From NCBI RefSeq assembly GCF_001447785.1, contig NW_015160269.1:62001-126000 (forward strand): a stretch of 64,000 bases of DNA, written 5' to 3'. A model generated the notes under the pieces. The model was not told the origin of the DNA. It searched no databases and saw nothing but the letters and a program-made list of their open reading frames with translations. This DNA is from Gekko japonicus (Eukaryota). Both the position numbers and the translations under genes were made by a program. Shown here piece after piece: positions 38,180-63,616 of the stretch (its first letter is position 1; every line of letters begins with the position of its first letter).

Positions 38180-38597
38180 AAGCGATGGGCATGAACTGGG
38201 AAAATATAGTTCAGTTCATGGTTTGTCGCATGCCTTTTTGGCAAACCATGAACTTTCACAAACTTTTAAGGGCTAAACAAACCAGTTAGGTTTGTGTGGT
38301 CCATGATATGGTAGAAACCCCCCCCCCAGCATGCTAGACACATCAAACTCACAGGAGATCTCTGGCTGACTATTCTTTACCTCTTCTCCAAGTTTGGTGA
38401 GGATTGGATTTATGGGGTCCGAATTACACCCCCCCAAAAAAAGGTGCCCCATACTAATTGTTTCCAAAGGAGGAAAAACAACAGCAGCAGCAAAGCAAGA
38501 GCAAAAGAAGCCCAGCAGAACAGAATCAAAGTCCTTGAGAATCTCTGCAGTAAAAACTGAAGGTGTGTGTGTGGGGGAATTGAAAACAAATGAGCCA
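38180..38597. mobile_element. Terminal fragment of the TAGGGATGGGCA hAT family
   Basis: gatgggcatgaac terminus. Subterminal ccccccagcatgctagaca..caaact motifs are shared in reverse complement with 11930-12096 and 62830-62970. Confidence 0.65.
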
Positions 38598-40888: not shown

Positions 40889-43088
40889 CCACCCTCCAAA
40901 GCATCCATTTCCTCCAGGGAAACAAGAGTTGCCAACTGTGATGTGGGGGCTGGAGATCACCTGGAATTACAACTGCTTTCCAGATAACAGATAGCAGTTC
41001 TCCTGAAGAAAATGGCTGCTTTGGAGGATGGACTTTATGGCATTATATACTGCTGAGGTCACTTCCTTCCTCAAACCTTGCCTTCCCAAGGCTCCACCTC
41101 CAAATCTCCAGGGATTTCCCAACCTCAATCTGGCAAACCTGAGGGGAAACTGATCTATGTAGTCGGGAGATCTGTTGTGATTTCAGGAGATCTCCAGCTC
41201 CCACCCGGAGGTTGGCAACCCTAGTAGGAGAGAAGGAAGCAGGAAAAGGAGAGACTATGGGGGCTTTCAAGAAAGGGAAACAGTGGGAGAGGGGGAAGTG
41301 AGATGCCTCCCGCAAGTCCTTGAAGGTTCCCACCTGTATAATATAATATAATAATAATATTGAAAAGTGGCATATAAATGTTTTAAATAAATAAGGAAAT
41401 AATAAACCGAAATAAATACAAATAATTAGCCAAAGAGGTAGATAACATGTTACACACTGGAATTCTGTAACTATCCCACATTTTGGACTGCTCCAGTCCC
41501 AGGACTCTATCTTTCTCCACTCTCCTGTTATGCTAATCCTTTCCCTAAACTCTTCTCTCCCACACAGCCTCCATGTGCCAACCCTCAGAACCTATCTGAC
41601 TCTCCATCAGTCAGATTGTAGCCCATCCCCCAGAACATAACACGTATTGTCTGGTTCAGGGAGCCACTCTTATTGGCTGCTATGTTGCAGGGATACTTTA
41701 CACATATACTTAAGTTTCCCCTGTCAGGGCAGGAAAATGGTGTGGTGGGGAAGGCTTCTGCCTCTGCTCTGCTCAGGCCAACTTGAGCCTGCACATACCT
41801 GGGAATTAATTCTTCAGCCTGGATCTCCCTGATCCTGTCTGTTGACTGGACCTATGGGGGACTTTGTAACATACGAATTCAACCTGATCCTCTCATTAGA
41901 GCCCAACATCAACAACGCATTCCCAGGATATTGATCAAGCCTAAATAATGTATCAGACTTGCCAAGTCTTGCAGAGTCAACAGTGGAGGAGAGGAGAGGA
42001 AGGTCTACAGCTCCAGAAAGGAATGGCCTGGCACAGACTTACCCCATTAGGATCAGACCACTCTTGACCCAGTGGAGCAGGCTACTCATAAGAGTTACCA
42101 AGCACTTTTTCATTGGGCCAAGTAGTGAGAGCCACCCAATCCAGAGAACAGAGTCTCTTTACAAGCACGCACAACCATGTTTAAGTTTACTATTTCTCAA
42201 ATAGGTTGTTTATGTGTGCTTTAATGATGCAAGAGTCAGGACAGAGAAAGTGCACGGGACCTGGTGAAAATGAACAGGACTAAGAGGATGAATGAGTATC
42301 ACCTACTTACTACTGATTGTATTTTGAGTTGACACTTTAGCTCACTTTGCGATGCAATAGTAGCAAAAGAACCTGATTGTTACTAAACATTAGGAAACAC
42401 TTCCATATCTATAACCTTTTTTAGAACACCCAGGAATGGTTCCGTCTTCACATCATGTATCTAACAGCCAGCATGGTATAATGGTTAGAGTGTTGGGCTA
42501 AGATTGGGGATGCACCAGTTCTTAGATTTTTTTTTACAAGGTTGAAGGCTTAAGGAGGTCCTAAGTGCAGGGCTTCAGCATCATCTACCTGTGCCATGTA
42601 ACACAGATGCACATAGAAGCCATCCCATACATGAAGTCTTATGAATCATGTGTAACACATGATTAAGCTTTCAGACCTCTACCTATGTGAATAAGCATTC
42701 TGGACAGATATTCTCTTTGTTTTGTTCTGTGTGTGGATATGCTGGGGGGGGGGGGGGTTATTGTTGCAAGTAGCCAGTAGATGGCATCATCTGCATTATT
42801 ATTGTGCCACAGTCTGACAAATGCAGTTTCTGAAGTTTGTGCAGCCTCCTCTCCTAGCGTGCCAGATATGGACAGTATGCAACGAGGCAAGTGTACAGAA
42901 CTGCATAGGTGAAGAAAATACTGCCAAACATTTTTCTACATATATCACTAAATGTAGGATTACAGATGACAGAGGAAAACATATGGGCTGAAACCTAGCA
43001 AATATTAATATGACTAATGCCCCCTGAAAACAGTAGAAGAAAGCCTTTCATAAATAACTTAAGTCCCATTTATTTCACTTGAGACGAA

Positions 43089-43364
43089 GGGCGATTTCTC
43101 ACTAGAGCTGCCTCGCAGCACAGCGCCGTTTGCCCCAACACAAACATGTCAATTTCACACCTGAGGCTGCATTTGACTCGGGGCTTCGCCCAATTTCCTC
43201 CGCATTTTCATGATCCTCAAAAACCAGGATTACGAAACTGCGGAGGAAATCGGGCGAAGCCCCGAGTCAAAATGCAGCCCCGGAGCTTTGGGTGTGAAAT
43301 TGACATGTTTGTGTCGAGGCAAACGGCGGCTGTGCTGCGAGGCAGCTCTAGTGAGAAATCGCCC
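43089..43364. mobile_element. Foldback PIF/Harbinger-like MITE
   Basis: Nearly the whole element is palindromic: GGGCGATTTCTCACTAGAGCTGCCTCGCAGCACAGC.. / ..GCTGTGCTGCGAGGCAGCTCTAGTGAGAAATCGCCC. Flanks are GAA and TAA. Confidence 0.85.
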
Positions 43365-43879
43365 TAAGTTTTGTCAGATAAGTAATCTACTTTCATGACT
43401 ATGATGTGGAAGTAAGGGTTCCAGATTCAGCAAAATCTCTTTATCAGCTAGAGTTCATATAGTTTCTGCTATAACTTTGGATAAATAATATAATTTCTTT
43501 TAATCTGCAATATCATCCATAATGGGTTTCTAAAAATATTGCAACTGAATGCGCTTTGTCTTCTACCTTTATCATTCTGTCACTTCTCAGTGGAAGTCTG
43601 GTAATTTAAAAAAATTACATCCTCATACCCTTCACCCTACATAAAGGAGTCTATTTATCTCAGCTGGCCAAATCAATCAATGAAAGACCTTAGAGAAAAT
43701 TCTGCTTCACTTGCAATTGTGCGATTGTTGATCATCAAAATACAAAGTAGTAATATTGGCTTACAACAGTATTACAATTAATTAGGTGAGTTTAAGTTCA
43801 ACAATATGGGAAATTTTCTAACTCTTTTAATGGAGCAAGTTATTTTCCAGAAGTATTGGCCCTGATTTGAATACTACTA

Positions 43880-46800
43880 GTGATCCCTCATAGATCACTG
43901 CCTTGACGTGGCAAGGGGGCTTGTGTGGTTCGATGAGGCGGTAGGCTATGCCGTGGAGGGGTACCCAGGACAGACAGGCCACAGCAGAGAACTCCACTGG
44001 ATCCACTGGAGAAGGAAATGGCAACCCGCTCCAGTATCTTTGCCAAGAAAACCCCATGGACAGTAACAAAAGGCTACAAGATATGACGCCAGAAGATGAG
44101 CCCCTCAGGTCGGAAGGTGTCCAATATGCTACTGGGGAAGAGCAGAGGGCAAGTACAAGTAACCCCAGAAAGAGTGAAGCGGCTGGGCCAAAGCAGAAAG
44201 GACGCTCAGCTGTGGATGTGTCTGATGGTGAAAGGAAAGTCCGATGCTGCAAAGAACAATACTGCATAGGAACGTGGAATATAAGATCTATGAATCAAGG
44301 TACACTTGATGTGGTCAAAAATGAGATGGCAAGACTGAACATCAACATCTTGGGAATCAGTGAACTAAACTGGATGGGAATAAGCGAATTTAACTCAGAA
44401 GACCATTCTATCTACTACTGTGGCCAAGAATCCTGTAGAAAAAAATGGTGTGGTCTTTATAGTCAACAAGAGAGTGTGAAAGGCAGTAATGGGATACAGT
44501 CTCAGAAACAACAGAATGATCTCAGTTTGAATCCAAGGCAAACCATTCAACATCACAGTAATTCCAGTCTATGCCCCAACCACTGATGCAGAAGAGGCTG
44601 AAGTGGATCGGTTCTATGAAGACCTACAACACCTCCTAGAATTAACACCAAAAAAAGATCTCCTCCTCATCATAGGGGACTGGAATGCTAAAGTAGGAAG
44701 TCAAAAGGTAACCGGAATAACAGACAAGTTTGGCCTTGGAGAACAAAATGAAGCAGGGCAAAGGCTAACAAAGTTTTGTCAAGAGAACACGCTGGTCATA
44801 GCGAACACCCTCTTCCAACAACCTAAGAGGCGACTCTACACATGGACAACACCGGATGGGCAACACCAAAATCAGATTGATTATATAACTTGCAGTCAAA
44901 GATGGAGAAGCTCTATACAGTCAGTAAAGACAAGACCTGGAGCTGACTATGGCTCAGATCATGAGCTACTCATTGCAAAATTCAGACTTAAACTGAAGAA
45001 ATTTGGGGAAACCAATAGACCATTCAGATTTGACCTAGATCAGATCCCTGATGAATATACAGTGGAGGTGAAGAATAGGTTTAAGGGACTAGATTTGATA
45101 TATAGCGTGCCTGAAGAACTACATTACATTGTAGAGGATGCAGCAATCACCACCATCCCAAAGAAAAATAAATGCAAGAAAGCAAAGTGGCTGTCTGATG
45201 AGGCTTTACAAATAGCAGAAGAAAGAAGGAAAGCAAAAGGCAAAGGTGAAAAGGAAAGATTTACCCAACTGAATGCAGATTTCTAGAGAGAGATAAGGAT
45301 GCAGATTTCTAGAGAGAGATAAGGAGGCTTTCCTGAATGAACAATGCAAAGTAATAGAGGAAAACAATAGAATGGGAAGGACTAGAGCTCTCTTCAAGAA
45401 AATTGGAGAAATCAAGGGATCATTCCATGCAAAGCTGGCCATGATAAAGGACAAAAACGGTAGGGACCTAACAGAAGAAGAAGAGATCAGGAAGAGATGG
45501 CAAGAATACACAGAATAACTATACAAGAAAGACCTCAGTGTCCTTGACAACCACGATGTTTAATCACTGACCTTGAGTCAGACATCCTGGAATTTGAAGT
45601 CAAATGGGCCTTAGAAAGCATTACTAACAACAAAGCTAGTGGAGATGATGGTATCCCAGCTGAGCTATTCAAAGTCTTAAAAGATGATGCTGTTAAAATG
45701 CTGCACTCAATTTGCCAACAAATTTGGAAAACACAACAGTGGCCACAGGATTGGAAAAGATCAGTTCACATTCCAATCCCAAAGAAGGGCAATGCCAAAG
45801 AATGTTCAAACTATCACACAGTTGCACTCATTTCATACACTAGCAAGGTCATGCTCAAGATCCTACAAGCTAGGCTTCAGCAGTACGTGGATAGAGAACT
45901 GCCAGAAGTACAAGCTGGGTTTCGAAGAGGTAGAGGAACCAGAGATCAAATTGCCAACATTCGCTGGATTATAGAGAAGGCAAGAGAGTACCAGAAAAAG
46001 ATCTACTTTTGCTTCATTGACTACGCTAAAGCTTTTGATTGTGTGTGTTATGTATGGAACTGAATGTATTGAGCTTGAGTCTAAGCAAGGTACTGTAAAC
46101 CGACCTATCAGAACAAGGGAAGTTCTGGAGGGAAGCAAACTGATTGGTCTTTATGTACTGAATATGATTGGATGTTGTCTGACTTGTGGGCATGAGTTGC
46201 CAAGCCCAGACTGTTTAAAAAGGAGCCTGTTGTTTGTCTCGTTCTGGTTCTTCTGACTTTGTGTTCAATAAAGCTGTTATCACTGTTCACCTGCTGCCTT
46301 GAGTCTCATATCTAACAGTGTGGATCACAACAAACTATGGCAAGTCCTTAATGAGATGGGAGTACCAGACCACCTCACATGTCTCTTGAGAAACCTGTAT
46401 AAGGGTCAAGAAGCGACAGTTAGAACCAGATATGGAACAACTGATTGGTTTAGCATAGGAAAAGGAGTACGACAAGGATGTACATTGTCACCTTGCTTAT
46501 TTAATTTATATACAGAGTACATCATGCGAAATCCCAGCCTGGATGATTCAGAAGCCGGAATTAAGGTTGCTGGGGAAAAGATCAACAACTTCAGATATGC
46601 AGACAATACCACTCTAATGGCAGAAAGTGAAGAGGACCTCAAGAGCCTCTTGCAGAGGATAAAAGAGGAGAGTGCAAAGGTTGGCTTGAAACTCAACATC
46701 AAAAAAACTAAGATAATGGCATCCGTCCCCATCACGCCTTGGCAAATAGAAGGAGAAGTTGTGGAAGCAGTGACAGACTTCACATTCCTGGGATCCAAGA

Positions 46801-47377
46801 TCACTGCAGACGGTGACTGCAGCCATGAAATTAAAATACGCCTGCTCCTTGGGAGGAAAGCGATGGCAAACCTTGAAAGCCTAATAAAAAGTAGAGACAT
46901 CACCCTGCCAACAAAAGTCCATATGGTCAAAGGATGGTATTCCCAGTAGTACTGTATGGCTGCGAGAGTTGGACTACAAGGAAGGCCGAGCGCCGAAGAA
47001 TAGATTCTTTTGAATTATGGTGTTGGAGAAGACTCTTGAGAGTCCCCTGAACTGCAAGGAGATCAAATCAGTAAAGCCTAAAAGAAATCAACCCTGACTG
47101 TTCCCTGGAAGGCCAGATACTGAAGCAGAAGCTCAAATACTTTGGCCACCAAATGAGAAGGGAGCACTCACTGGAGAAGACCCTGATGCTGGGAAAGATT
47201 GAAAGTCAAAGAAGAAGGGGATGGCAAAGGATGAGATGATTAGACAGTGTTATCGAGGCAACGAACATGAAATTAAGGAAACTCCAGACCATGATGGAAG
47301 ACAGGAGGGCCTGGCGTGGTGTGGTCCATGGGGCCGCGAAGAATCGGACTTGACTGTGCGACTGAACAACAACAAAA
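43880..47377 (+). mobile_element. Near full-length BovB (RTE clade) LINE, frameshifted
   Basis: 5' motif GGAGAAGGAAATGGCAACCCGCTCCAGTAT. Endonuclease: IGTWNIRSMNQG, GDWNAKVG, NQIDY, SDHELL. RT: VRQGCTLSP, FRYADN. Ends GACTGAACAACAAC. A 26-bp tandem duplication lies at 45273-45324. Confidence 0.96.
46046..46317 (+). mobile_element. Gypsy-type solo LTR inserted in the BovB RT domain
   Basis: TGTTA...TAACA termini, AATAAA and a perfect 5-bp TSD GTGTG. Removing it restores KAFDCV-DHNKLW. Confidence 0.93.
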
Positions 47378-50300
47378 GCGACACTTAAGTTCAGTTGTAA
47401 TCAATAGGGCTTAAATTAGTTCTATGGAACATTGTCCCATTGATTTTCAATAGGATTTTACTTCAGTTGGAACAGAACATTCCTTTATTTATTTATTTAT
47501 TTAAATAAGTTAATTGACATCGGAACTAACTGTTGCACAGTATTTTAGGGTTTTATTGTTTTAAATTATCTTTTAATGGTTGTTTTAATGGTATTATATT
47601 GAGAATTGTTGTAAACCACTCTGAATCTACCCGCAGGGAGGGTGGTATATAAATCAAATCAATAAATACATTTATATCCCATCTTCCACCCCAATGGGGA
47701 TGAAAAATGGCTTACAATATCATTCTGGTTCTCTGTGATTTCCTCCTGGTTAAACGCCACCTTACACATGGAAACAGACTTAACGCCCACCATTCTAAAA
47801 GCCTTTTGACTTGTCCCGCTAACAAGTCTCGACGCGAAAGCCTTCGTGACAGTCTGGTGCAATTTACAAGCTGGTCTATAAAGAAAAAAATCCAGGAAGT
47901 GGCAAGGCTTAATGGTGGTCTCCCTTTAAATGAATTGAAAGTTCTTGTTTTTCCTGATGTCCCACAAGAAGCCCTATGCATAAGATATACACTTAAGTCG
48001 GTGACGTCTAAATTAAGAGAGGCTAACATAAGATACAGATGGCTCCCCACAGGGAAGTTACAAGTCTCTTATAAAGGTTCATCCTACCTGGCAGTAAACG
48101 AGGAGTCGGGCTTGGAAATGCTGCGGGCTTTACACATTTCCGATGATAAGAAAAACTACTAAAAGAAAAGGAAACTACAAAACCCAGAAACCCCAGAAAC
48201 TACTAACAAGGTCGCTGCATGCAACACAGCGGAGTAAGAGTGGGAAGACATTGCAGACATCAAGTCAGATGCTTAGTCCAGCACTGCATATGGAAGACTC
48301 TAGTTTTGGCCTCTTGTCGGTCTTAATGCTTGAAAAGCTGTTTTAAATATTTGTTTCTTTTAAAACTTGTTATTGGTTTGTACTTTTTGCAAGGGGGGGG
48401 ACACGATGTTCTTTTGCTCCAGGTTAAGATAGTTGGGTTTCTGGACGCTGCCAGGCTAGTTTGCAGGTTCTGTGAACAGAGGGTGGGCAGTCTTCTTCTT
48501 CCAAAACCATGGGTATAGTAATTCAGCTATTAAAATATTAGGCAAGTTTATAAGAGGGAGTATATAGAATTGGTACAATTTATAGATATAATAGACTAAT
48601 AGATTATAGATTACTGTTGTTGTGTTTTTGTATAGTTTAATTTTTTCTGACTGTTATTTAACCTAGTGATTTTAACTGATATTGCACTGAGGTAACTCAA
48701 CTTAATTATTAACTAAGACCAACTGATTGTTTAAAAAGGGGGTTTTAAGTGATAAATTTATTGATTAATTACATTTTCTGAGTGTTTCACTGTAGAACAA
48801 CCATCTTCTAGTAATAAGACAGTATAATTGGATCTAGGACCTTTACCTTTTTACTGCATCTGGTTAACTTTTAGTGGGAGGGAGATTTATTTTTGTGTAC
48901 AGTTCTTTGGCACACCTCTAATTACAGCAAAGTTTGAATACTTTTGGGTTGTATTGAATTAACTTAATTGTCCAGTAATTTGGTTTCTGCTTCACACTAT
49001 TATTTCTCACAGGGATCTCTGGTTTGTAGTAAGTAAGTAAAAGAAAGTATCTTTTTGGTTAGTTGCTGTGATCTTATCTGTTTATACTTACTAATGACAG
49101 TGGCACATATACACCGCAGTGATGGTACTTAACTTGAAATTCTGTTCGGTGAATATAAGAGGCGTTAACAATCCTATTAAGAGAAAATGTGTTCTACAAC
49201 ATGTTAAGAAGATACATTTTGATATTCTCTTTATGCAGGAAACTCATTCGCGAAATATTGTGGAAGCAATTCTAAAAACTCCATTGTATCCTCTACAATT
49301 CCAAGCAGCAGGTTCTTCTAAAAGTAGAGGAGTAGCTATTCTCATAGCAAGAAACATTGATTTTGTCTTGCAAGATACTAAAATGGATCCTTTGGGATGT
49401 TATATTTTGATTAAAGGTTTACTTGACGGGAAACACATAACACTAGCTTGCTTGTACGCTCCCAACCAAGATCAGATTAATTTCCTGGACAGTGCTTTTT
49501 CTTCTCTCAAGAGATTTCAGGGTGGAGACCTTATTATAGGAGGAGATTTAAAATTCATTTCTAATAATGTATTAGACAGATCCCATTCACACTCTAGAAG
49601 ACCTAGCAAGCAACCTCATGCTACACAATTATCTAAGCTTTTTGTTAAATACCAACTTTGTGATGCATGGCGGCTGCTTCACCCTCAGGATAGAAATTAC
49701 ACCTACTTCTCTGCAAGACACAATGTCTTTACGAGAATTGATTATCTGCTAGTCCCTCATTCCTTATCCCCATACGTAGCTATAGCTTCTATAATGCCTA
49801 GACATCTAACAGACCAAGCGTGGTTAGAAGGTACATTGAGGGTAGATAAGTTAGCAAATAAGCACAACATGTGGTCTATGGATCACAGTATTTTATTGAG
49901 GGAGTCAGCGAGAAAAGCTATAGAAACAGACATCCAGAACGTTTTTAAGGCAAATACTTTGCCAGACATTTCAATCCCAATATTATGGGACTTGATGAAA
50001 GTTGTTTTACGTGGTTCCATGATTGCGATTCCCTCACATCTACGAAAGGAAAAAACCCGTATTAGGTCAGATTTGATGACGCGGATCACAGAACTAGAGG
50101 CGGAGCAAAAATGTATTGGAGGAAAGAAAACATCAAAAACTTTTAGTGGAAAGAAAATCACTTGAGGCCTTGGAAATTACTCAAATACAGAAGAATTTGT
50201 TGTTTCTTAAAGCAGCGACATTGGGTCAAGTCTCCTAAAAATATTCGCTTGTTGACCTGGAGGGTCAACAAAAGACGACAATCCTCCTTTATTGGCTCAA

Positions 50301-50455
50301 TAAAACAATCTAGTGGAGATATCTGTTTTTCTTCCAAACAAATTGCTGATTCGTTTGCTGACTTTTACAATAAGCTTTATAGTTCAGACAATCCTAGTGC
50401 GTTTGAAATTGAATCCTATTTAAATGCTGCGTCCTTTGCTCAACGTCTCACAGAT

Positions 50456-51746
50456 TTTTTTAAATAAACATTTTATTTGAGTTTTTTAACATATGAGAAT
50501 AATGTACATTATTACAATAACATTTAAAACCAGAATTTAAACAAGAACAACTTTAAACAAACATACATCTAACAATGAACTGCTTTGCTAAAGGTAAGAC
50601 TATTAGATTTTTTGTACTCTTCTTGAGCCTAAAGTATCCAGCCACTCTTAATAAAGACAAAATATTGTGAATTACACAATTGTTGAACGTTGTCCAAAAC
50701 ATATTCTGCATTTTCTAAAATTGGTGACCATCTGGAGAAAAATAGTTGGGGATCATAGGAAGCGTCAGAGTTTGCTAACTTATCTGATATTTTATCCATC
50801 AATATCTTCATGAGCCATGTTTTGAGTGATAAGGGGGAAGGATTCTTCCAATTAAGTGCTATCGTTGTCTTTGCTGCAGATAGTAGGAGAGACAGCAATT
50901 CTTTGCGATTTTTGGATATAGGAACTTCGTTCCAATAGTTTAACGATATTATTTCTGGGCTTTCTGGGATTTCGTAACCTGTTAAAATTTTAATTTCACT
51001 AAGAACTTGTTTCCAAAATGATCTTTCTGATTTGCCTTTCCACCAACAGTGTAGATAGGACCCTGTGGAGCCACAATTTTTCCAGCACATAGGTGATAAT
51101 TTTGGATTCATCAGATGTAATTTCAATGGTGTTAGTTACCATCTTGTTAATAGTTTGAAATGTTGTTGTTTTATATTAATAGACTTCGAGGTGGAGGCAT
51201 ATTGCCTCCCATTTGGATGCGGGAATGTCAATGGCGAGGTCAATGGACCAGGAAGATACATAGGATGGTAAATTGGAAGGGTCAGGTTCTAATAGAGATT
51301 TATATATTTTGGAAAGCATCCCTTTACTTGCATCATTTGAGGATAAAAGAAGTTTTTCAAATTCTGTTTGAGGTCTTTTGGAGCTGCGGTGGCTCAAGTG
51401 GTTAAGACGCTGAACTGCAGGCTGTGGAAGGTCAGTAGTTCAGCAGTTTGAGACCCGAGTGTGCCGCATGACGGGGGGAGCTCCCGTCTCTAGTTCCAGC
51501 TCCTGCCAACCTAGCAGTTCGAAAGCCAGAAATTGCAAGTAGATAAATGGGTACCACTTCGGTGGGAAGGTAACAGCGTTCCGTGCACCTTGGTGTTTAG
51601 TCATGCCAGCCACATGACCACAGAAATATCTTCGGACAGCGCTGGCTCTTCAGCTTTGAAACGGAGATGAGCACCACAACCCTAGAGTCGGATTCGACTG
51701 GCTTTCAAGCAAGGGAACCTTTACCTTTTTACCTTGAGGTCTTTTT
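50456..51746 (-). mobile_element. 5'-truncated L1 fragment, antisense, replacing part of the host ORF2
   Basis: ORFs 51176..51397 and 50629..51126 encode an L1 ORF2 C-terminus (CWKNCGSTGSYLHCWW, AAKTTIALNWK). AATAAA and an A-tail lie at ~50456-50480. No TSD. Confidence 0.88.
51380..51733 (+). mobile_element. Full-length Sauria SINE nested in the antisense L1 fragment
   Basis: Same family as 27473-27826. ACCTTT tail and a perfect 12-bp TSD TTGAGGTCTTTT (51368-51379, 51734-51745). Confidence 0.93.
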
Positions 51747-54096
51747 ACTCGGTGGAGGTACAGTACATGCTGCTTTTATTTGAAAAAATGGGCTTTGGCA
51801 CAAACTTCCTAAACATTCTTCGGTCTCTCTACTCTAATCTTGCATCTAGGGTTTGGATCAATGGGCAGCTATCTTACCCCTTCTATCCCTCAAGGGGAAC
51901 CAGACAAGGGTGTCTGCTCTCGCCCTTGCTCTTCACGCTCGCTGTAGAGCTATTGACAGAGGAGTTACGACAAAACAGGGAATTCAATGGCATCTACATG
52001 GGTGGTACTGAACATAAAGTTAATTTATATGCTGATGACTTGACATTGTATATCTCCAATCCGATTCAGTCCATAAGACACATCCAGCACATACTGTATG
52101 ACTTCGGGAAGATTTCAGGTCTACAAATAAGCCCAACCAAATCTGAACTGTACCCAGTATGGACTCAATCTGACACTCAAACACATTTGAAAAGACTTTT
52201 CCCTTATAAATGGGTCACAGATTCCTGGAGGCACTTAGGCATACAAATCCTGATTGATTTGAAAGACCTTTTGCGTTTCAATCATGTTAAATTATATAAG
52301 GACATTGGCTTACGATTAAAGGACTCTCTTAATTTTTTTCTTCCAGATCGCCTACACCTTATTAAAAGTTTCATCTTGCCAAGATTCCTGTTTCTATTCC
52401 GTACGCTGCCAATTCACATTCCTGAAAAACATCTTCATCTCTGGCAACGAAAGCTTACTTCTTTCCTGTGGGGGGAGGGAAATCCAGAGTTAATCAGAAC
52501 ATCATAATTAAACCTACCTCCTCAGGAGGATTAGATTTTCCATCACTTCGCACTTACCTTCATGTCTCAGCATTAGCTGTTGTTGTCCAGATGCAACAAC
52601 ATGATTCCCAACTGATATGGGTTCAGATGGAGCAAGATTATGCAAAACTCTTCACACTGCAGGAAATAGTATGGATGTCTCTGTCTCATTGTCCAAAATC
52701 ACTTCACAATAATCCTTTTCTCCTCACTGCTATTAAAATATGGGATCGCAGAAAGAAAAGGCTAATACCAGATATCTCCTCCTTATCTACTCTAATTAAC
52801 CAAGCATGGTTCCCTCCTGTGCAAGCAAGAGAGGCCTATGAAGTTTGGAGAATTCCAGGTTTTCCCCATCTAAACGATTTTGTCTCTCAAGGGAAGATAA
52901 GTGATAAAGCATACTTTGACTTACACTTGGACACACAACTACCCTCGCATTGATACTTACAACTAAAAAATTTAATGGAAACTCTTACATCCCAAGGGGT
53001 CTTTACCAAACCTAAATCAGCGAGCAGGTGCTATTATTGTATACCGATGGTCTCAAAGGGCTGATGGCCAAGCTATATAAGATATTATTAGACACTGACG
53101 GCAATCCTCCTCTGAAATACCAAATTCAATGGCAAACTGATCTTCAAATGGACCTAACAGAATCGCACTGGCAAAATATGGAACTCTCTGGCAAATACTT
53201 TGAAAGGTTTTAGCATTCGAATTCAGTCTTTCAAGACAATTGTTCGCTGTTACTACACCCCGGAAAGGTTGCATAAAATGAAACCTTCCCTTAGCCCTTT
53301 ATGCTGGAAAAACTGCGGTTACAGGTTCATTCTATCATTGCTGGTGGGAATGTCCTAAGATATACCCTTTTTGGTGTGAAGTCTTTAGTCAAATTAACTA
53401 AATTACTCTACTGAATTTGCCTACCTGTCCTGAAATGGCTCTTCTTAATCTTATGATCCCAGAAGCTGGAACTGCGGCTCTTAAAGAACTCACTTCGATT
53501 CTGCTTGCTGCAGCTAGAACAACAATCACACTGGTATGGAAAATAGCTACCTCACCAACTCTTCAGATGTGGAACAAGATTTGGGACCAATTCATTCTTG
53601 CCAAAATCACAAATGTTATCTAGCTATCTAACAGGGATACTTCTGCTTTTACTCGCTTTGATTCTATTTGGTTGCGGATGCTTCAATTCATGTTGGAGAA
53701 GAATATACTTCTTGCAAACACCTCTTACCACTCATGGATATGCCCATGACTCAAATTTGACTTATAGGGTTGTCACAGTCTCTTATAGCAGCTAGAACCC
53801 AATGCCTGTCTTATATAACTCTTGTACAATATCCAGCCTTGTTTATAAATGCAGTGCTTAGTCAATACAGATGAGAGGTGGCAAGTCATATGCATGAATG
53901 TAGTCACTAAGTTTATTTTTTTTTTTTTTGTTTTAAACTGCTGACAAGCTGTTAGCTTGTCTTTTTTTTTTTTGAATAATTTTTTATTTGCATCATAAAT
54001 TATTGTTACATTACTTTACTATCCCAATTCTCTTATGATACGTTTTCCCCCTTTTATGTCCCACCCCCCACAAGGTGAGCATCACATAACTACAAA

Positions 54097-57000
54097 TTAA
54101 ATTTTTAACCATGAGCACATTTTTTTCAATTTTTCAAGTATAACGGAATTAGCTTCTCCATTGTTTACCCACTGAAAGTATATAGACCATTTCTTTTTTA
54201 TCTCCTTCATTTTTCCATCCCATACCTTATTTTGTTTAATACATTCCAATATATCTGACTGGATATATTCGTATAAATAATCGTTCCATCTATCTAAAGA
54301 CCACTTCAAACTCTCCTTCCAACCATATGCAATCACAGCATGCGCTGCTAGTAACATTGCTTTAAAGATTTCCTGATTTTGTCTCTCAATGTTACCATTT
54401 CCCATTATGCCCATAAATAATAAATCTCCATCTATTTTAAGATCCACTTTACATAACCCTACTATCTTTCCCCGTACCTTTTCCCAGAAATCTCTAACCC
54501 TTGGGCATTCCCACCACAGGTGAGAGTACCACCCTTCCTTTGCACCACAGTGCCAACAATTAGGTTTCATACCTTTAATCATGTATGCCAATTGGGCAGG
54601 GGTTCTATACCATTTCCAAATTATCTTTCTTTCAAGCTCTCTATATTTTTCTAATTTAATTTTCTTCAAATTCACCATTAGTTTATTGATGTCGTCAGAG
54701 ATTATTTGTTTTTCTTTATTCCATTTATTTTTTAAGGTTCTTAATATAAACTCCTTATCTTTCACCAATTCAAGGTAAATTTTCCCTGCTAATCCTTTCC
54801 TTATTTTATCCACATATAATACCTGTTCTAAATTGTTGTCTTCCCTTTTTATAGCTTCTATATACCTATCTTGTTTAACCAAGTGTGATAGTCCCCTTAG
54901 ATTTAACCAATAATTTTCCCCTATTCTTTGATTCAGCTCCTGAAGTGGTAGGAGATTCCCTTGAGAATTGTACATATCCTTAACTCTAGTTATGCCTTCC
55001 CCCTTAAGGGCTTTCCAGAATTTCGCATTCATCTCCTCCTCCCAAATATACTTAAGTGGGATCCACTTTGAAGTCTGGGGCAACAGAATCGTCCTACACT
55101 TCTTCCAAGTCATCAAAGCTGATTTTCTTGGACCCATTGCTTTTCCTATCTCCTTTCGCAAATCTCTAGTGTATATTCCATAGCTACCCACCCCCTTATT
55201 AATTGCTGATTCAAATCTTACCCATTTATCCTCCACCATCCATTCCATCGCCATTAGTGCCTTCAACTGAAATGCGTCATAATAGGCTTGTAAGTATGGT
55301 AGTCCCCATCCCAAATCATCTTGAGGCATATACACCAATTTTTTTGATATTCTTGCTTTTTTTCTACCGAACACCCAGCTTTTAATCTTTTCATCCCATT
55401 TCCCTAATACTTTCTGGTCAATTTCTATTGGGAGTACCTGAAATAGGTATAACATCTTTGGTAATAGGAACATTTTTGCTGCTCTAATTTTCCCCAGAAT
55501 GCTCAGATGTTTGTTCTTCCATTCCTTCATTTTCTTTATTATCTTTGACCAGGTCTTACTGTAATTAATTTTATGTAACCTCTCTGTATTTTTGTCAAGA
55601 TATACTCCTAGATACTTAATTTTGCTAACATCTGATTTCATCCCTGTTAAAGCTAATATCTCACTTTTAGTATCCCTATCTACATTGAGAAACATTATTT
55701 CAGATTTTTTAATATTAACGCCAAGCCCCGAAATTAACTTGAAATCCTCTAGAATAATTAGCAATTCTCTTATTGCCTGCAATGGGTTAGTTAGTGTCAG
55801 TAAAATATCATCCGCAAAGAGGTTTAATTTAAGTTCTTCCTTAGCTATTTGGAATCCCTGAATTCTGCCACTATTTCGAATCCTATCTGCTAGAGGTTCC
55901 ATTGCCAATGCAAATAACATTGGGGATAGTGGGCAGCCTTGTTTTACTCCTCTCTGAATTAAAATTTCTCTAGTATGCCCTCCATTTATCCTAATTGCTG
56001 CTTTGCCATCCCTATATATTTCCCTTATTGTATTTAGGTATAGTCCACTGAATTCAAATTTTTCCAATACCTGCATTAGATAATTATGATTTAAGGTATC
56101 GAATGCCTTGTATACGTCTAATTTTAATAAAGTTAAATTTTTCTTATTTTTGCAAAATAAGGCATTTAATATATTTCTCAACGGGTGGGCTATAGATCTA
56201 TTTTTAACAAAACCATATTGGTCCTCCTTAACTAGTTTTGGCAGAATATTTTCCAGTCTATTGGCTAACACTTTTGCGAAAATTTTATAGTCCTGATTCA
56301 TTAAACTAATCGGTCTATACGAATTTACATCCAAAGGGTCCCTCTGGGGTTTTAATATTGGCACTATTTCAGCTTTCTTCCATGAATCTGGGGTTTTACC
56401 GCCTTCTAATATATAATTAAACAAACTTTGCATTTCTGGGATCAGCAGGTCCGCCATTTCCTTATAGTATTCCCCCGTGAATCCATCCAATCCAGGTGAT
56501 TTCCTATTTTTTAATCTCTTTATTACTTCTGCTATTTCCTGCCTTGTAATTTCTTTATTTAAGTTTTCCCTTTGTTCCGTTGTTAATTGCTTATCCAATT
56601 GTTCCTCAAATTTTTGACTTTCCCCAGAATTAAACAATTGTTGATAAAATTTAGCAAATTCCTCTCTTATGTAATCATTTTTGTAAAGCTTTTTTCCCCC
56701 ATCCCCCTTAATACATCCTATTGTTTGCTTTTCCTTTCTTATCTTTAAATAATTGGCCATTCTTTTCATTGTGTTTATATTAGTTCTTTGGTATTCATTT
56801 TTCACTAGTATTTCTTTTTTCCACAAAGATAGGGAGTCTAAGTTCTCTAAATCTTTTTTAAGTTTTTTAAGAATTTCTTGAGTCTCACTACTATAATTTT
56901 CCTGAAGTTCCTTTTGTTTTTGTCTAATTTCGCTTATTTTTCTCTTTCTTTCCTTATTATTTTCCCTACCAATTCTAATTTCTTTAGCTATATAGGCCCC

Positions 57001-57834
57001 CCTTATGACTGCTTTAGCCGCATCCCAGATCACTTCTTTCGGAGCTGAGTCCCTATTCTCTCTAAAGTACATTTCTATGTCTCTTCTTATGTCCATCCGG
57101 TCTTTTTCTGTTAGTTGAATATTGGGCTTAAATTTCCAAATTTTTCCTTTCTGTTCTTCATTTAATTTAAATTGTGCTATCAAAGGAGCATGGTCCGAGA
57201 TCCATATAGGCTTAGTTTCGGTATTTACTACCTCCATCTCATTTGTTTCCTTTACTAAAATGTAATCTATATGTGAAAAGGTCTTAAATCTGTTTGAGAA
57301 ATATGTAGGTTGTAAAGTTTCCCCCCCATAAGAAAATACATCTTTCAATTTCCACTTTTTAAGCTTTAAAGTTTTACTTTTCCTGAGATCATAATTAATA
57401 TCTCCTGCCACTATTAAATTCCCCTCATAGAAGTTCTGTAATCTCTGGAATATTTTATTTAAGAATTTTAGTTGGCCTGTGTTCGGTCCATATATAGAGG
57501 CCACTGTAAATTTCTTATTATTCAACTTAAATTTCAGAAAAACATATCTCCCTTCTGAGTCAGATATTTGGTCCAATATTTCCATTTTTAGATCAATATG
57601 TGCAAGAATTGCAACTCCTCTTGCCTTCCTAGTTCCTCTCGCTTCCCCCTTTACTTCCCATAATGGTGAATTTAACAAAGGTTTTTTGTCTTTTTTGCCT
57701 TTGTGGGTTTCCTGCAAACATACTATATTTATCCCTTGTTTATTAATCATCTTTTTTAATCTGTACCTCTTTAATTCCGAAGCCAAACCGTTTATATTCA
57801 AAGAAAGTAAATTAATTTTCTCAACCATTTTCAT
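54097..57834 (-). CDS. L1 ORF2p (APE endonuclease, reverse transcriptase, CCHC), 1245 aa
   Basis: Endonuclease: SLNINGL, CLQETH, SIYGPN, AGDIN, HIDYIL, SDH. RT: KSPGLDG, YRPISL, KAFD, QGCPLSP, LFADD, KYLGV. CCHC: CWHC..HLWWEC. Confidence 0.97.
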   Translation of the reverse strand: MKMVEKINLLSLNINGLASELKRYRLKKMINKQGINIVCLQETHKGKKDKKPLLNSPLWEVKGEARGTRKARGVAILAHIDLKMEILDQISDSEGRYVFLKFKLNNKKFTVASIYGPNTGQLKFLNKIFQRLQNFYEGNLIVAGDINYDLRKSKTLKLKKWKLKDVFSYGGETLQPTYFSNRFKTFSHIDYILVKETNEMEVVNTETKPIWISDHAPLIAQFKLNEEQKGKIWKFKPNIQLTEKDRMDIRRDIEMYFRENRDSAPKEVIWDAAKAVIRGAYIAKEIRIGRENNKERKRKISEIRQKQKELQENYSSETQEILKKLKKDLENLDSLSLWKKEILVKNEYQRTNINTMKRMANYLKIRKEKQTIGCIKGDGGKKLYKNDYIREEFAKFYQQLFNSGESQKFEEQLDKQLTTEQRENLNKEITRQEIAEVIKRLKNRKSPGLDGFTGEYYKEMADLLIPEMQSLFNYILEGGKTPDSWKKAEIVPILKPQRDPLDVNSYRPISLMNQDYKIFAKVLANRLENILPKLVKEDQYGFVKNRSIAHPLRNILNALFCKNKKNLTLLKLDVYKAFDTLNHNYLMQVLEKFEFSGLYLNTIREIYRDGKAAIRINGGHTREILIQRGVKQGCPLSPMLFALAMEPLADRIRNSGRIQGFQIAKEELKLNLFADDILLTLTNPLQAIRELLIILEDFKLISGLGVNIKKSEIMFLNVDRDTKSEILALTGMKSDVSKIKYLGVYLDKNTERLHKINYSKTWSKIIKKMKEWKNKHLSILGKIRAAKMFLLPKMLYLFQVLPIEIDQKVLGKWDEKIKSWVFGRKKARISKKLVYMPQDDLGWGLPYLQAYYDAFQLKALMAMEWMVEDKWVRFESAINKGVGSYGIYTRDLRKEIGKAMGPRKSALMTWKKCRTILLPQTSKWIPLKYIWEEEMNAKFWKALKGEGITRVKDMYNSQGNLLPLQELNQRIGENYWLNLRGLSHLVKQDRYIEAIKREDNNLEQVLYVDKIRKGLAGKIYLELVKDKEFILRTLKNKWNKEKQIISDDINKLMVNLKKIKLEKYRELERKIIWKWYRTPAQLAYMIKGMKPNCWHCGAKEGWYSHLWWECPRVRDFWEKVRGKIVGLCKVDLKIDGDLLFMGIMGNGNIERQNQEIFKAMLLAAHAVIAYGWKESLKWSLDRWNDYLYEYIQSDILECIKQNKVWDGKMKEIKKKWSIYFQWVNNGEANSVILEKLKKMCSWLKI

Positions 57835-57885
57835 TTGAACCTTTTATATATTTGTGCTCATTTCCATCCTTTTTTTCTTTAGTGC

Positions 57886-58764
57886 TCACCCCCANNNNNN
57901 NNNNNNNNNNNNNNNNNNNNNNNNNNNNNNNNNNNNNNNNNNNNNNNNNNNNNNNNNNNNNNNNNNNNNNNNNNNNNNNGACTCTCCTTCGTCTTCACTG
58001 CTAGTAGTAGTGTTGTTGAGGCTTTCCTGTGTCTCAAGATCTTGGTCCTCCAGATTTCCTGGGTCTAATGATGCTGTACTGACTCCCAGTCTCTCCAACA
58101 TTCTTCTTGCCTCTTCTGGGTTTTTTGCACGCAGCAGTTTACCTTCTCTGAATACCAAAATCACCGCTGGGTAACCCCATGTAAACAATATACCATTGTC
58201 AAAAAGCTTCTGGGTGTAAGGTTTCAACATTGCTCTTTGCTGCAGCGTCTCTGGAGAGAGGTCCTGTCTTATAATCACTTTGGATCCATTAAATTGCAAG
58301 TCCTTCTGTACTTTTAAGCTTTTATAAATATTGTCTCTTGTTTTTTCTCTTGCAAATGCCATAATAACCTCTCTTGGCTTTGTTCCTGGACCTGGTCTTG
58401 GACGAAGTGCTCTATGTGCTCTTTCAATTTCCTCCGGCCCGATTTTAATTCCACACTGTTGAAACCACTCAATGAGCTTTCCTTCAAGGTCTTTCTGTGC
58501 TATATCTTCTGGAATTCCTGATAAACGAATGTTTCTTCTCCTTTGACGGTCGTTTACAGAAGCTAATCTGTTAGTTAGCTCCTTAATTTTATTCTCATTC
58601 AATTCGGCCTTCTGAGCTGCTTTATCAGCCGTAATTTTTATGCTCTTAATTTCTGAGGCCATCTGTCTCAAGTCTTTCTTCAAAGCTTTAATATCACCCC
58701 TAACATTCTGTTCCAAGGTGGTAATTAACTGCGTTAAGTCTTTCAGTTCTTTTTTCGTCGCCAT
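57886..58764 (-). CDS. L1 ORF1p (coiled coil, RRM, CTD); C-terminus falls in an assembly gap
   Basis: Heptad N-terminus, RRRNIRLSGIPE, IERAHR, IRQDLSPETL and FTWGYP. ATG at 58764. Confidence 0.93.
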   Translation of the reverse strand: MATKKELKDLTQLITTLEQNVRGDIKALKKDLRQMASEIKSIKITADKAAQKAELNENKIKELTNRLASVNDRQRRRNIRLSGIPEDIAQKDLEGKLIEWFQQCGIKIGPEEIERAHRALRPRPGPGTKPREVIMAFAREKTRDNIYKSLKVQKDLQFNGSKVIIRQDLSPETLQQRAMLKPYTQKLFDNGILFTWGYPAVILVFREGKLLRAKNPEEARRMLERLGVSTASLDPGNLEDQDLETQESLNNTTTSSEDEGEXXXXXXXXXXXXXXXXXXXXXXXXXXXXXWG

Positions 58765-59445
58765 TTTCAATGCCTCTTGCTTCTCTCCCTTTCACCAGCC
58801 TTGTTTCTAGGGAGCACAGAGGTAAAAAAATGTCTCTCACCTTGAAATTTTGCTCCAAGCCGAGACTTTCTGGTTCTCCCCCACCTTCACAGATGTTTCA
58901 GGGTGTTTAGCAAAGTTTATCTTTCTTTTTGGCAGCTTAATAGTAAACTTATCCGGGAGGCAGCTTGAGAGCGTCTTAATCGGGTTGACGCATGCGCAAT
59001 TCCCCTAGTCACTAAGTTTATAACCCGTCCTTATGGTTCATAGGTTGGTCATGTTGTTTCTGCAGTTACTGTGGTTTGTTTTTGTATTTATCTGTTTGTG
59101 TATATTAACAAAAGTTAAAAAAACTTTTGTGGGGGAGGAGCTCCCATTATTAAAAGCTATGCAGTGTGCAGAAAACCAGAATGTGAAATACACAGATACT
59201 CTAGGTGGTCCTTCCCTTGGTAGACTGTGCTCTACCTTCTGTCCTCTCCTGGATTACACCATTGATTTTCAACTGGTAGGTCATGACCTGACCCAAGATG
59301 GATCAAACACAACTTTCTCGCCTTCCTACTTCCACTGAAACCCATAGTGCTCCTTCAAATGCTGCTTCTAGAAAACTGGGACTTCAGGGAATAGCATTTC
59401 AGAAGTAGGGATGGGCATGAACTGGCTCAAGAACAAAAGAATGTG

Positions 59446-61805
59446 CTGACTTCCGGTATGGCGTAGTGACGGGCAGCCGCGGCCGCGTTGAGCGCCGAGA
59501 CGCCCGAGTCCTTTTGCGCCTCTCAGGAGCCCCCTGGTTGCCGGGTGGGCTTCGCTGATCCTCCCGGAGAGAGGATTAGCAGCAAAGGGCTTTGTGGTGC
59601 CCCCCCCGAATCGGCAAATGAGGGTGTGTCTGCTACCGCCCTGAAGCAGGAGCACTCAATGGAAGAAGCATGGTCACCATGTTTCTACTAGCTACGGCCA
59701 TCCGTCTTTTTAATTTGGTGGGATCATAAACAGGAACAGAGCTAAAGAAAGTACATTGTAAAAAGAAGAAGAAAGATTGTGCACGAACGATGTTTCCTTT
59801 TGTCTTTTGGATAATGGACTGATTACCCCAAGCAGCTGGCTCCAATGATGAAGAAGATGGCCGGGAAAATGGACAGCAGCAGAGATTGATTAAGAAGGAG
59901 GGGTAAGAAAGTTTACATTGCTTGAACTGTTGTGCTGCTGGGAGGGATAAACGATAAGAAGTGAAAAAGCTACAAATTTTAAAAATCGTGTACGGAAGAT
60001 GAGTGAGCATGGAAAAATGGAGGAAGAAATAGAGGAGGATGAATTGGAGACTTGACTTAGGAACAATTCTCGAATTTTTTAAGGCGAGAAATAAAACAAG
60101 CAGTTAACATTGCATGTAACAACTTAATGAAAGACTACCAAAGATCAGACCAAGATGAGAACATAAAAGAAAGGCAGGCTCAGGGATTTATGGAAGTCCA
60201 AAGTGACAATCAAGAGAAGATAAGAGAATCTCAAATCAGTAATGTGATTAAAACCTGTGTCCTGGGGAAGGAAGTGACAAAAAAACCTATATTTGAAAAA
60301 GAATGTGAAGGAGAGAAGGAAAAGGAAAAGAAAGGCTCCGGTAAAGAAAATTAAAGTGGAAAAAAGAATGGTGACTGACCCCGCAAAAAACTGAAGATGT
60401 GGCTTTGAATTGGGAATTTGTGAATATAAATCTGCAAGACACTTGAGTGAAGTTCAGAGGGAAAAAGAAATGTTAGAAAGAGGAGAAAAAAAGGGAAAGG
60501 CAAAAATTATGTTGGATGTGATGTGGTTATTTTTATTATGTTTTGGATACAATGGCTGAAAAGGGGAAAAATGGATTTTCTTAAAGCAAATTTGGTATAA
60601 AGGCAATGAATTTGTAATTTAATTTGGATGATGTGATTTATAGCTATGTTTCTATTTTAAAGCAATGAATTTGTAATTTAATTTGGGTGATTTGTGTTAG
60701 GGAAGAAAAAAAAGGGAAAGGTAAAATTATGTTGGACATGAGGTAGCTGTTCTTATTATGTCCTGGATACAATGTTGAAAAGGGGGAAAATGGGTTTATT
60801 TAATGCAAATTTGGTATAAAGGTAATGAATTTGTAAAGTAATTAGGGTGATTTGATTTAAATATGTGCTATTAATTTAAGGTAATGAATTTGTAATTTAA
60901 CTTGTGTGATTTGATTTATAGGTGTGCTATTAAGTTATTTAAGTCTATTTATTATTATTTGATGAGTATGGATGAAAATAAGTGTATGAATGGACTTAGG
61001 TTAGGTTATATTTTGGTAGTGGATAGGGGTTAGCACAGGAGATGGGGTAGAGACAAGGAATTTAGTAAACTAAGAAAATATGAATATTATGGGCCTTTTA
61101 TTTCTTTGGTTTGTTTTTTGGTTTGTTTTTTATAGGCAGATATTGCTTTCCTTTTTACTGCTGGACTGAAAGAAAACATAATATCAGAAAAGAGGGTCAG
61201 AAGGAGGTCTTTGTATAGATAATGGAAGTGCTAAAACATCTTAAACATAAATTAACTGAAATTATAAGAGATAATTAAATGTTGATATAAGGGTTGATTA
61301 GGAGGTAGATTCTTTTGATTTCAGAATATCAATCATGTAAGATAATTGTAATTAGTTATGTAAGTTAACAATATGTGGTTTCCTAAAATATATGGATAAG
61401 TCAAGAGAAGGTGAAACTATCTGAACATAAAATATGGTTATAAAATCTTAATGGTATATCTGGTTCATTAGACATAGTGTGAATATAAATAAATATGAAT
61501 TGTTAACTTCTAGGTAGCACAAATAGAGAGAAAGGAATTACTTTTGCAATTAGATGGGCATTATTAAGCCGGTTTGATAGTAACATTATTGATACTAATG
61601 GAATTGTAATTTAAATCTACTATAAACTTTGTTGTTAAAGTAATGTATAAAATCTTATAATCGTGCCGTAAATTACTGGATAGGAAAAGGATAAAGAGGA
61701 AAGGATGGAGTTATTATTCCAGAATGAAATGTTACAGTGTACATGATATTTGTATATCCCATTGTGTGTTTGTCTGTTGAAAAATGAAAATAAACTGTTA
61801 AAAAA
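59446..61805 (+). mobile_element. 2.36-kb non-coding retroposon with L1-type insertion hallmarks
   Basis: Perfect 17-bp TSD AAGAACAAAAGAATGTG (59429-59445, 61806-61822). CpG-rich 5' end CTGACTTCCGG, and AATAAA at 61789 followed by an A-tail. No sense-strand ORF longer than 75 aa. Confidence 0.85.
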
Positions 61806-62971
61806 AAGAACAAAAGAATGTGACAAATTTTGGGTGATTTATGGTTCATGAACTGAAGTTTGTGGCAGGTCAACCCGCACAAACTTTCAAGTAGAAAGTG
61901 GTTAGTGAATGGATACATTTCCAGACAAACAAAACGTTTACCAAACTTCAAAGCAACAGATGGGTGATGGTGGAATTCTTCAGCCTTGGAAACACTGTTG
62001 TCAGTTTCAAACTAGTCTTGTCAGTTTCAAGAGGATTTTTTCTCCCTTTGCCCATGTTCCTTTGTGTTCCCTTCCCATTTTCTTGCACAGAGCTTGCAAA
62101 ATCCACCCCCACTTGGATTTGTTGTGACTCTGTGCTTTGAGAGCAGTCCTTTTATACTTCACTGCCAGCGGCACTGGGTTCTGCTGGGCATTCTGCACAT
62201 TGTAACTGGTTATACTGGACTTGCAAAATCTCTCCCACCCCCAATTTCTTGTGACACAGTGCTTTGAGATCAGTCTTTTTAAGCTTGCAGTGCCACAGTG
62301 TCATTGAGTTCTGCTGGCATTCTATACACTTAACTGGTTGTGCTGGGCTTGGAAAAATGTCCCTCTCCCTCAGTTTGTACTGCAGGGATTCTCTGGTTTG
62401 ACATTAGTTCTCTTTTACTTGCATTGCTACAGTGGTACTGGGTTCTGCTGGGTATTCTGCAACTGAACTGGCTGCAAATCCTACCTTGCTTGGATCATGA
62501 TTCTGTACTTCACATTAGTCCTCTTGAGCTGGCATTGCCACAGTGGCACTGGATTCTGCTGGGCATTCTTTGATTGCATTGGTTCTGCTGGCCTTACAAA
62601 AATGCCCCCTCTTCAGTTTCTACTGCAGAGATTCTGTGGCTTGACCTTAGTCCTATTGGGTTTGCACTGTCACAGTGGCACTAGTTCTGCTGGGCACATT
62701 GCACTGGTTCTGCTGGGGTTGCAAAAATGCCCCCCTTCAGTTTCTACTGCAGGGACTTTGATTCTATTCTGCTGGGCTTCTATTGCCCTTGGGGGGTTTC
62801 GCTGGTTTTTTCCCCTGCATTGAAAGCAATGGAGGATGGGGGCACCTTCTTTGGGGGGCCATAACTTGGATCTAAAAAATCCAGTCCTCACCAAACTTAG
62901 AGAATAGGTAGAGGAGAATCAGCTAGAGATCCCCCTGTGAGTTTGGTGTCTCTAGCATGCTGGGGGGCATT

Positions 62972-63335
62972 CTACTCATTCAGCAGCAGAAGGAATAAGG
63001 AGGCTATCGAGTAGATGCCTGCTGCCTCAACAAAGGCCTGGCAGAACTGATCCATCTTGCAGGCCCTGAAAAACTGTAATAGGTCTCGCAGGGCTCTGAT
63101 CTCAATTGGAAGCATGTTCCACCAGGCTGGGGCCAGGGCTGAAAAAGCCCTGGCCCTGGTTGAGGCTAGGCAGGCATCTTTCAGGCTGGGGACAACCAGC
63201 AGATGACTATCCGCAGAGTGCAAGGCTCTTTGGGGCACATATGGGGAGAAGTGGTCCTGTAGATATGTCAGTCCCAGGCCGCATAAGGCTTCAAAGGTCA
63301 GCACCAGTACCTGGAAGCAGATCCGGTACTTGATT
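62972..63335 (-). mobile_element. L2 LINE ORF2 3' fragment
   Basis: IKYRICFQVLVLTFEALCGLG.TYLQD..RALHS..LL.VP..RAFSALAPAWWNMLP.EIR is a typical L2 C-terminus. Confidence 0.9.
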
Positions 63336-63616
63336 GTCACTCAATTCATGAACAGAACCAGTTTGTTTAGCCCCTAAAAGTTTGTGATGGTTCATGAACT
63401 GGGTATGCCACGAACCCTGAACCAAACAACCTTTTCTTGGTTCGTGCCCATCTCTATTCAAGGGACATTTTGGACTGCAGCAGGAGAGGGGATGTGAGAA
63501 AGCCACATCCATCTATCCATCCATCCATCCATCCATCCATGGAAATGCTTTGGAAGATCCAACCCATACAATCAATGACACTGAAAAATGCCACTGACAG
63601 GAGTTAAGCTTTTCAG

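Follow-up and report, generated by a model that had tools for sequence, protein, structure and literature searches.

Results

A full-length insertion with L1 hallmarks

In a 64-kb stretch of the Gekko japonicus genome (64,000 nucleotides of contig NW_015160269.1, hereafter the window), a retroposon with no recognisable coding sequence lies 23 bp in from the left end of an older DNA element, and is arranged head-to-head with a full-length L1 ca. 420 bp away (Table 1). The window is squamate-like in character and contains three N gaps, none of which falls within the retroposon (59446–61805). The results refer to this one window and to the single copy of the retroposon studied in it, and the comparisons with the literature refer to the available parts of the cited papers.

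The two target-site duplications (TSDs) were alike at 17 of 17 bases, confirming the perfect duplication reported in an earlier note on this DNA, and an exact 17-mer repeat no more than 9 kb apart was obtained in only one of 60 locally shuffled 64-kb windows. The TSD pair also encloses an L1-type head and a tail. The junction at the left TSD (TC followed by AAGA) corresponds to a bottom-strand nick at TCTT/GA, an L1-type site that is also found in rows 8, 17, 44 and 70 of a table of L1-mediated insertions (PMC4859970). The unit carries the features of an L1-mobilised retroposon, namely a TSD, an L1 endonuclease site and a 3' A tail; the TSD and the nick site support the earlier view that the unit is full-length, and indicate that it was inserted by target priming of the L1 type. 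59446–61805 is a real full-length insertion with L1 hallmarks, and its 5' end is complete.

The DNA element hosting the retroposon has terminal inverted repeats alike at 15 of 19 positions, and its TA flanks suggest that it is Mariner-like. In-silico excision of the unit rebuilt the left end of this element, indicating that the 17-bp TSD is duplicated target DNA. Termini of related elements were found at 38181 and 12095, and the host element is 73–77% identical to the copy near 38181–38563. Since the target is such an old DNA element, the retroposon insertion is younger than the DNA element.

Table 1 Positions of the retroposon, its parts and its surroundings in the window
Feature	Position	Strand	Remarks
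Retroposon unit	59446–61805	+	2.36 kb between two TSDs
Left TSD	59429–59445	+	17 bp
Right TSD	61806–61822	+	
GC/CpG-rich head	59446–59710	+	265 bp; Bayesian information criterion (BIC) segmentation, CpG map, RNA fold
GACTTCCGGT, then immediately ATGGCG	59448–59463	+	from base 3 of the unit
10-bp hairpin	59554–59580	+	just 3' of the GGGTGGGC word
A-rich purine block	59711–60505	+	795 bp; A 0.42, C 0.11
Tandem duplication	60471–60918	+	period 219 bp; four subrepeat units of 59-bp period
G/T-rich, C-poor block	60506–61799	+	1294 bp; C 0.07
Polyadenylation signal AATAAA	61789–61794	+	5 nt upstream of the tail
A tail	61800–61805	+	6 A; 8 A including the first AA of the TSD
Host DNA element	59406–63456	.	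older, non-autonomous, TA-flanked, with terminal inverted repeats
Neighbouring lizard clade-2 L1, full-length	53917–59005	-	outside the retroposon; 16-bp TSD

The head of the retroposon resembles lizard clade-1 L1

Positions 59446–59650 had a GC content of 0.654 and contained 18 CpG, and the observed/expected CpG ratio was 0.82 as compared to 0.27 window-wide, in agreement with the CpG-island-like 5' end described earlier. The RNA of the head was predicted to fold stably (z -2.84), only one of 200 shuffles being equally stable. Lizard L1s of clade 1 begin with GACTTCCGGTG-N8-ATGGCG, and GACTTCCGGT stands at the start of seven of nine Anolis clade-1 consensuses (PMC5381506). The 10-mer GACTTCCGGT that opens the retroposon occurred once in the window when both strands were counted. 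The L1-like RNA polymerase II (Pol II) head recognised earlier is now linked to the lizard clade-1 5' consensus, and presumably acts as an internal promoter of the type found in L1 5' untranslated regions (UTRs). By eye, the GGGTGGGC word with its hairpin and a GGGTAAGA word at 59901 also resemble Anolis clade-1 heads, of which the first 400 nt were compared; these likenesses serve as leads only.

A tRNA short interspersed element (SINE) had been dismissed in the earlier note, and searches for tRNA, Rfam families and RNA polymerase III (Pol III) boxes likewise found no tRNA, 7SL or 5S SINE head in the unit. It contained 17 runs of four or more T and no B box, and the Rfam scan returned no family, a single match having an E-value of 2.9.

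Composition and internal repeats of the body

BIC segmentation by composition divided the unit into three blocks with boundaries at 59710 and 60505. The first 1035 bp (59446–60480; GC 0.436, 30 CpG) fell within the ranges of Anolis clade-1 5'UTRs (792–1465 bp, GC 39.5–49.7%, 13–64 CpG), and Anolis L1-AC15 has one CpG island, at 1–248 (PMC5381506). The middle block, for which no homology was found, is L1-ORF-like in composition; it could be a decayed open reading frame (ORF) or else continue a long 5'UTR of clade-1 type. The distal block is L1-3'UTR-like in composition and is longer than Anolis clade-1 3'UTRs (194–570 bp). Lizard L1 shows a strong strand bias (PMC9099904); the body of the retroposon had a GC skew of +0.45 with 9% C, and the maximum in the background (213 1-kb windows) was 0.31. 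Under an L1-sense Markov model, nine of its 12 tiles scored higher than the 99th percentile of the background (438 tiles).

Tandem Repeats Finder called the duplication at 60486–60913 (period 219, 82% matches). When aligned, its units were alike at 186 of 224 bases (83%), and all six pairs among the four subrepeat units were alike at 35–38 of 44 positions. The duplication of ca. 218 bp in the earlier description was thus upheld, and its subrepeat period of ca. 57 bp had to be corrected to 59 bp. Likewise, the AATAAA signal was confirmed, and the A tail that was said to accompany it turned out to be short. The gap between AATAAA and tail was 5 nt, close to the 9 nt in the neighbouring L1, and lies below the 10–40 nt spacing criterion for cleaved Pol II ends (PMC9311842). 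RNA folding at the 3' end gave no signal of structure (z +0.60).

Search for hidden coding sequence

As had been claimed, no domain was recognisable: Pfam searches of all six frames returned no family apart from one match with an E-value of 7.4. The longest stop-free run on the sense strand was 97 aa, and runs as long occurred in 71 of 500 shuffles. No recognisable host-mRNA ORF, as expected of a processed pseudogene, was found with Pfam or, for the 97-aa stretch, in the protein collection, where 0 of 22 candidates (lengths 115–368) were homologues. This run was also considered as an ORF2 linker preceding the reverse transcriptase; its profile score was borderline, pairwise comparisons with 13 proteins (17–286 of 300) were mostly at the level of chance, and the reading was not accepted.

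For a profile of the ORF2 C-terminus, 150 relatives of the C-terminus of the neighbouring ORF2 were fetched; the profile set consisted of 23 of 153 stored proteins, which form a second squamate-like cluster that is probably clade 1, plus a full-length Varanus ORF2. A six-frame HMMER search found nothing (best E-value 0.35). The frameshift-aware search of the unit scored 16.5 bits (shuffles 15.1 ± 2.0, with 15 of 100 as high), as compared to 116 and 129 bits for the positive controls, and with a codon-level ORF2 model 17, 32 and 51 per 100 shuffles were as good. Simulated ORF2 remnants were detected in 20 of 20 trials at 30 aa intact, 60 aa with 10% decay and 100 aa with 20% decay. The scores of the retroposon, being mostly at shuffle level, support the earlier statement that ORF2 is undetectable; neither its endonuclease nor its reverse transcriptase, as required of an autonomous L1, was found. 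Positions 61080–61410 were examined as a decayed ORF2 C-terminus and rejected, their best E-value and shuffle count being those given above and their look-alike words standing out of profile order.

An open ORF1 with coiled coil, RRM and CTD was also lacking. An ORF threaded through the A-rich block required eight disruptions, and 63 of 200 shuffles required as few. Simulated ORF1 decay of 5% and 8% produced 3.3 and 4.4 disruptions (95th percentiles 5 and 7), the test no longer discriminating at 12% decay or more. The codon signal in 59711–60505 was weak (z 1.6, five of 100 shuffles as high), and no match was found to the ORF1s of the window or in Pfam.

Neighbouring L1 and other repeats

The neighbouring L1 has an open ORF1 (58764–57886), the end of which is interrupted by an 85-N assembly gap, and an open ORF2 (57834–54097, 1245 aa), the C-terminal part of which shares 40% identity with a protein from Anolis. 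Its 5' end fits the consensus of lizard clade 2 except at two positions. At its 3' end, two A tracts ca. 30 bp apart resemble a short 3' transduction. This intact element shows that L1 machinery was present recently. No detectable sequence was shared between it and the retroposon; when the 5' end was compared with local L1s, as suggested earlier, the adjoining intact L1 proved to belong to clade 2 and to be unrelated. Origin from either L1 in the window was rejected, as there was no significant sense-strand BLASTN or TBLASTN match.

The other L1, at 47700–53600, is of a second, more divergent lineage in which ORF1 and ORF2 are separated by an AT-rich spacer of ca. 930 bp. The ORF2 of this L1 is broken by a minus-strand L1 3' piece (ca. 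50460–51360) and by a 355-bp SINE-like repeat (51380–51735), which has a 12-bp flanking repeat and is 94% identical to 27474–27826. The host DNA element contains an internal degenerate array of ca. 130-bp units (62093–62755), and another copy of it adjoins an ORF2 C-terminal fragment (38620–39081, plus strand) of a family that we take to be CR1. Elsewhere in the window, a broken long interspersed element (LINE) at 43945–47400 (plus strand), presumably RTE/Bov-B-like, retains endonuclease and reverse transcriptase pieces in several frames, and a broken frame at 9800–10650 (plus strand) has, by eye, what we assume to be a likeness to the C-terminal region of hAT transposases. A GC-rich 203-bp tandem repeat (7413–8096, 3.4 copies) lies beside a 420-bp imperfect palindrome (6859–7280), and further palindromes lie at 43088–43365 and 28643–28944.

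Discussion

On balance, we lean towards the reading that the retroposon is an ORF-less, non-autonomous derivative of lizard clade-1 L1, which was non-coding before insertion and was copied in trans. In its favour are the clade-1 words in the head, the L1 nick site and TSD, the close spacing of AATAAA and tail, the L1-sense strand bias of the body, the lack of a detectable ORF2 C-terminus, the eight disruptions in the A-rich block and the divergence of the duplication units. The CpG head of a source copy would have driven Pol II transcription, and the RNA would have been polyadenylated at its own AATAAA signal; an active L1 would then have supplied the ORF1p/ORF2p that captured this RNA in trans, with target-primed reverse transcription at the insertion site. 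L1 takes any polyadenylated RNA, with relaxed poly-A recognition (PMC5786205). More tentatively, the source lineage might have lost both ORFs long ago and cycled on as RNA, and long cycling of this kind might have led to the strong L1-sense strand bias and to an internal duplication before insertion.

Several observations weigh against this reading. No second copy of the retroposon was found in the window. The two clade-1 words stand in order from base 3, but the 9-nt spacer of the consensus is missing, and the full spaced consensus had no exact match in the window. The head motif is not lizard-only, since L1s of opossum and some of zebrafish begin likewise, and similar ETS/YY1-type words also occur at the starts of host CpG islands. 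The background tiles against which the L1-sense Markov model was judged doubled as training data for the background model. The 17/17 TSD is a loose age bound that permits up to 16% divergence of the pair, ca. 8% per copy, and the tail is short (6–8 A). Detection of ORF2 remnants was poor for 60 aa or less at 20–30% decay: 8 of 20 simulated remnants were found at 60 aa with 20% decay. At 100 aa with 30% decay, 12 of 20 were found. With the whole-ORF2 profile, the 97-aa run reached a borderline score of 21.1 bits, against 16.5 ± 1.6 for 40 shuffles, the highest of which scored 22.1. Finally, the codon test weakens at 20% decay, and the absence of ORF1 was judged without a clade-1 ORF1 profile. 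The assertion of the earlier note that both ORFs are missing stands for a detectable ORF2 and for an open ORF1, and is weaker for a decayed clade-1 ORF1.

The units of the duplication are 17% apart and the TSD is perfect, a combination with P = 0.04 if both were of equal age; the duplication is therefore probably older than the insertion. In the rows compared from the new L1-mediated insertions listed in PMC4859970, tails are 8–178 nt long, and with its tail of 6–8 nt the present insertion is probably not fresh. The insertion had been called recent, which is an overstatement given the divergence that the TSD permits and the short tail. Together, the TSD bound, the older duplication and the short tail suggest that the RNA was already non-coding at insertion. 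The earlier argument that coding capacity was lost before mobilisation probably holds, in view of the TSD, the divergence of the units, the eight disruptions and the ORF2 remnant tests.

The best-surviving rival explanation, which we nevertheless consider unlikely, is a one-off deletion in an autonomous L1 of clade 1 whose UTRs were long, arising by splicing, a template jump in reverse transcription, later genomic deletion or assembly collapse. The tandem duplication would then be inherited from the UTR of the parent. The clade-1-like dimensions of the first 1035 bp and the single copy in the window accord with such a deletion; spliced L1 retrocopies do occur, as dead ends (PMC5860796), and lizard LINEs are fragmented by large deletions (PMC3787681). 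However, the end of ORF2 must have been reduced to fewer than ca. 30 codons by the deletion, and the start of ORF1 made unreadable. The parent must also have had a 3'UTR of 1.29 kb or more, as compared to 194–570 bp in Anolis clade 1, although longer 3'UTRs are known in armadillo and in one zebrafish family. Assembly collapse gains from the three N gaps in the window, but no N lies inside the unit. If this explanation is correct, the retroposon is an ordinary L1 fossil.

A decayed HAL1-type element, with a short head, an ORF1 at ca. 59711–60505, a long 3' region and no ORF2, would have had its ORF1 broken after insertion. The middle block is approximately of ORF1 length and resembles the neighbouring ORF2 in GC skew (0.34 vs 0.29), AT skew (0.29 vs 0.23) and C content (0.126 vs 0.12), its weak codon signal reaches z 2.4 in a stretch picked post hoc, and HAL1 arose from L1 several times in mammals (PMC5753468). 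Yet the eight disruptions exceed the 95th percentile at 8% decay, which is the per-copy limit set by the TSD, and no match was obtained in the ORF1s of the window, Pfam or the protein collection (0/22 candidates), making this origin improbable. Retroposition of a non-coding host RNA that was transcribed from a CpG-island promoter appears very improbable. In its favour, cellular RNAs mobilised by L1 bear the same hallmarks (PMC4859970), L1 protein homology was not found and the window holds a single copy. Against it, the AATAAA lies just 5 nt from the tail, the L1 terminal motif starts from base 3 and the L1-sense skew extends across 2.1 kb, far beyond background.

The ORF-less clade-1 derivative that we favour may represent an undescribed freeloading family, of which one copy was examined. 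Membership in a multi-copy family is a serious possibility that falls somewhat short of probable, and it is doubtful that the retroposon arose as a rare event from a source that is itself a dead end. With similar reserve, squamates could harbour a multi-copy retroposon family of ca. 2.4 kb that descends from clade-1 L1, keeps the promoter and 3' end, has lost both proteins and propagates in trans; the proteins were possibly lost through a HAL1 stage, and propagation possibly lasted long enough for the family to acquire internal repeats of its own. A literature search at listing level found no ORF-less L1 family and no squamate description of one, and PMC5203782 yielded nothing of relevance. 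If there is no family, 59446–61805 is an unusual L1 fossil. A squamate family of this kind, if real, would be an exception in nature to the rule that an element must encode its own ORF1p. A replicating ORF-less L1 derivative would show that a long Pol II RNA that produces no ORF1p can nonetheless vie for L1 proteins in trans. It would also provide a minimal natural substrate, consisting of promoter and 3' end, for identifying the cis features of importance to L1 outside mammals, where several clades coexist.

Comparison with known systems

Lizard clade-1 L1 (Anolis L1_AC1–AC15; PMC5381506) shares with the retroposon the two words of the 5' motif, the CpG head followed by a purine-rich 5' region, an AT-rich, low-C region towards the 3' side, AATAAA, the A tail and the TSD. 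The two differ in size (2.36 kb vs 6.2–6.7 kb), in the detectable ORF1 and ORF2 and the 9-nt spacer that the retroposon lacks, and in its 1.29-kb distal block, the tandem duplication of which has no counterpart in the clade-1 5'UTRs of Anolis, as far as that source describes them.

Non-autonomous LINEs are either ORF1-present, represented by HAL1 for L1, or ORF-absent (PMC5786205). HAL1 (half-L1), described for mammals (PMC5753468, PMC5786205), is likewise derived from L1, lacks ORF2 and depends on L1 in trans, but it encodes ORF1p; the present copy shares the absence of ORF2 and has no open or recognisable ORF1. The ORF-absent bipartite LINEs (Bov-A, RTESINE, RIME and the Vingi and R2 derivatives) consist of LINE ends without ORFs and are probably transcribed by Pol II; those in the table of the survey are a few hundred bp long, in contrast to 2.36 kb here (PMC5786205). 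The retroposon is ORF-less as they are, its 5' part carrying the L1 motif words and its 3' descent from a LINE resting on composition and end structure only. The 2018 Repbase survey places ORF-absent bipartite LINEs only in RTE, Ingi, Vingi and R2 (PMC5786205), and a replicating ORF-less L1 derivative, if true, would fill the L1 gap among them.

SVA and Sadhu are unclassified long retroposons (PMC4494074) that are also long, non-coding and moved by LINEs, and SVA additionally resembles the retroposon in its size of ca. 2 kb, Pol II transcription, L1 mobilisation and internal repeats. However, SVA is a composite of Alu, tandem-repeat (VNTR) and retroviral parts, and neither SVA nor Sadhu, as described there, has an L1 5' end. 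SpIREs (PMC5860796) share L1 ends, a TSD and internal loss, but what human SpIREs lack, in that report, is part of the 5'UTR or of 5'UTR/ORF1 and not the two ORFs in full; they are dead ends. The retroposon is not an autonomous L1, a Pol III SINE or, as it stands, a HAL1; in its mode of action it resembles non-autonomous retroposons mobilised by L1.

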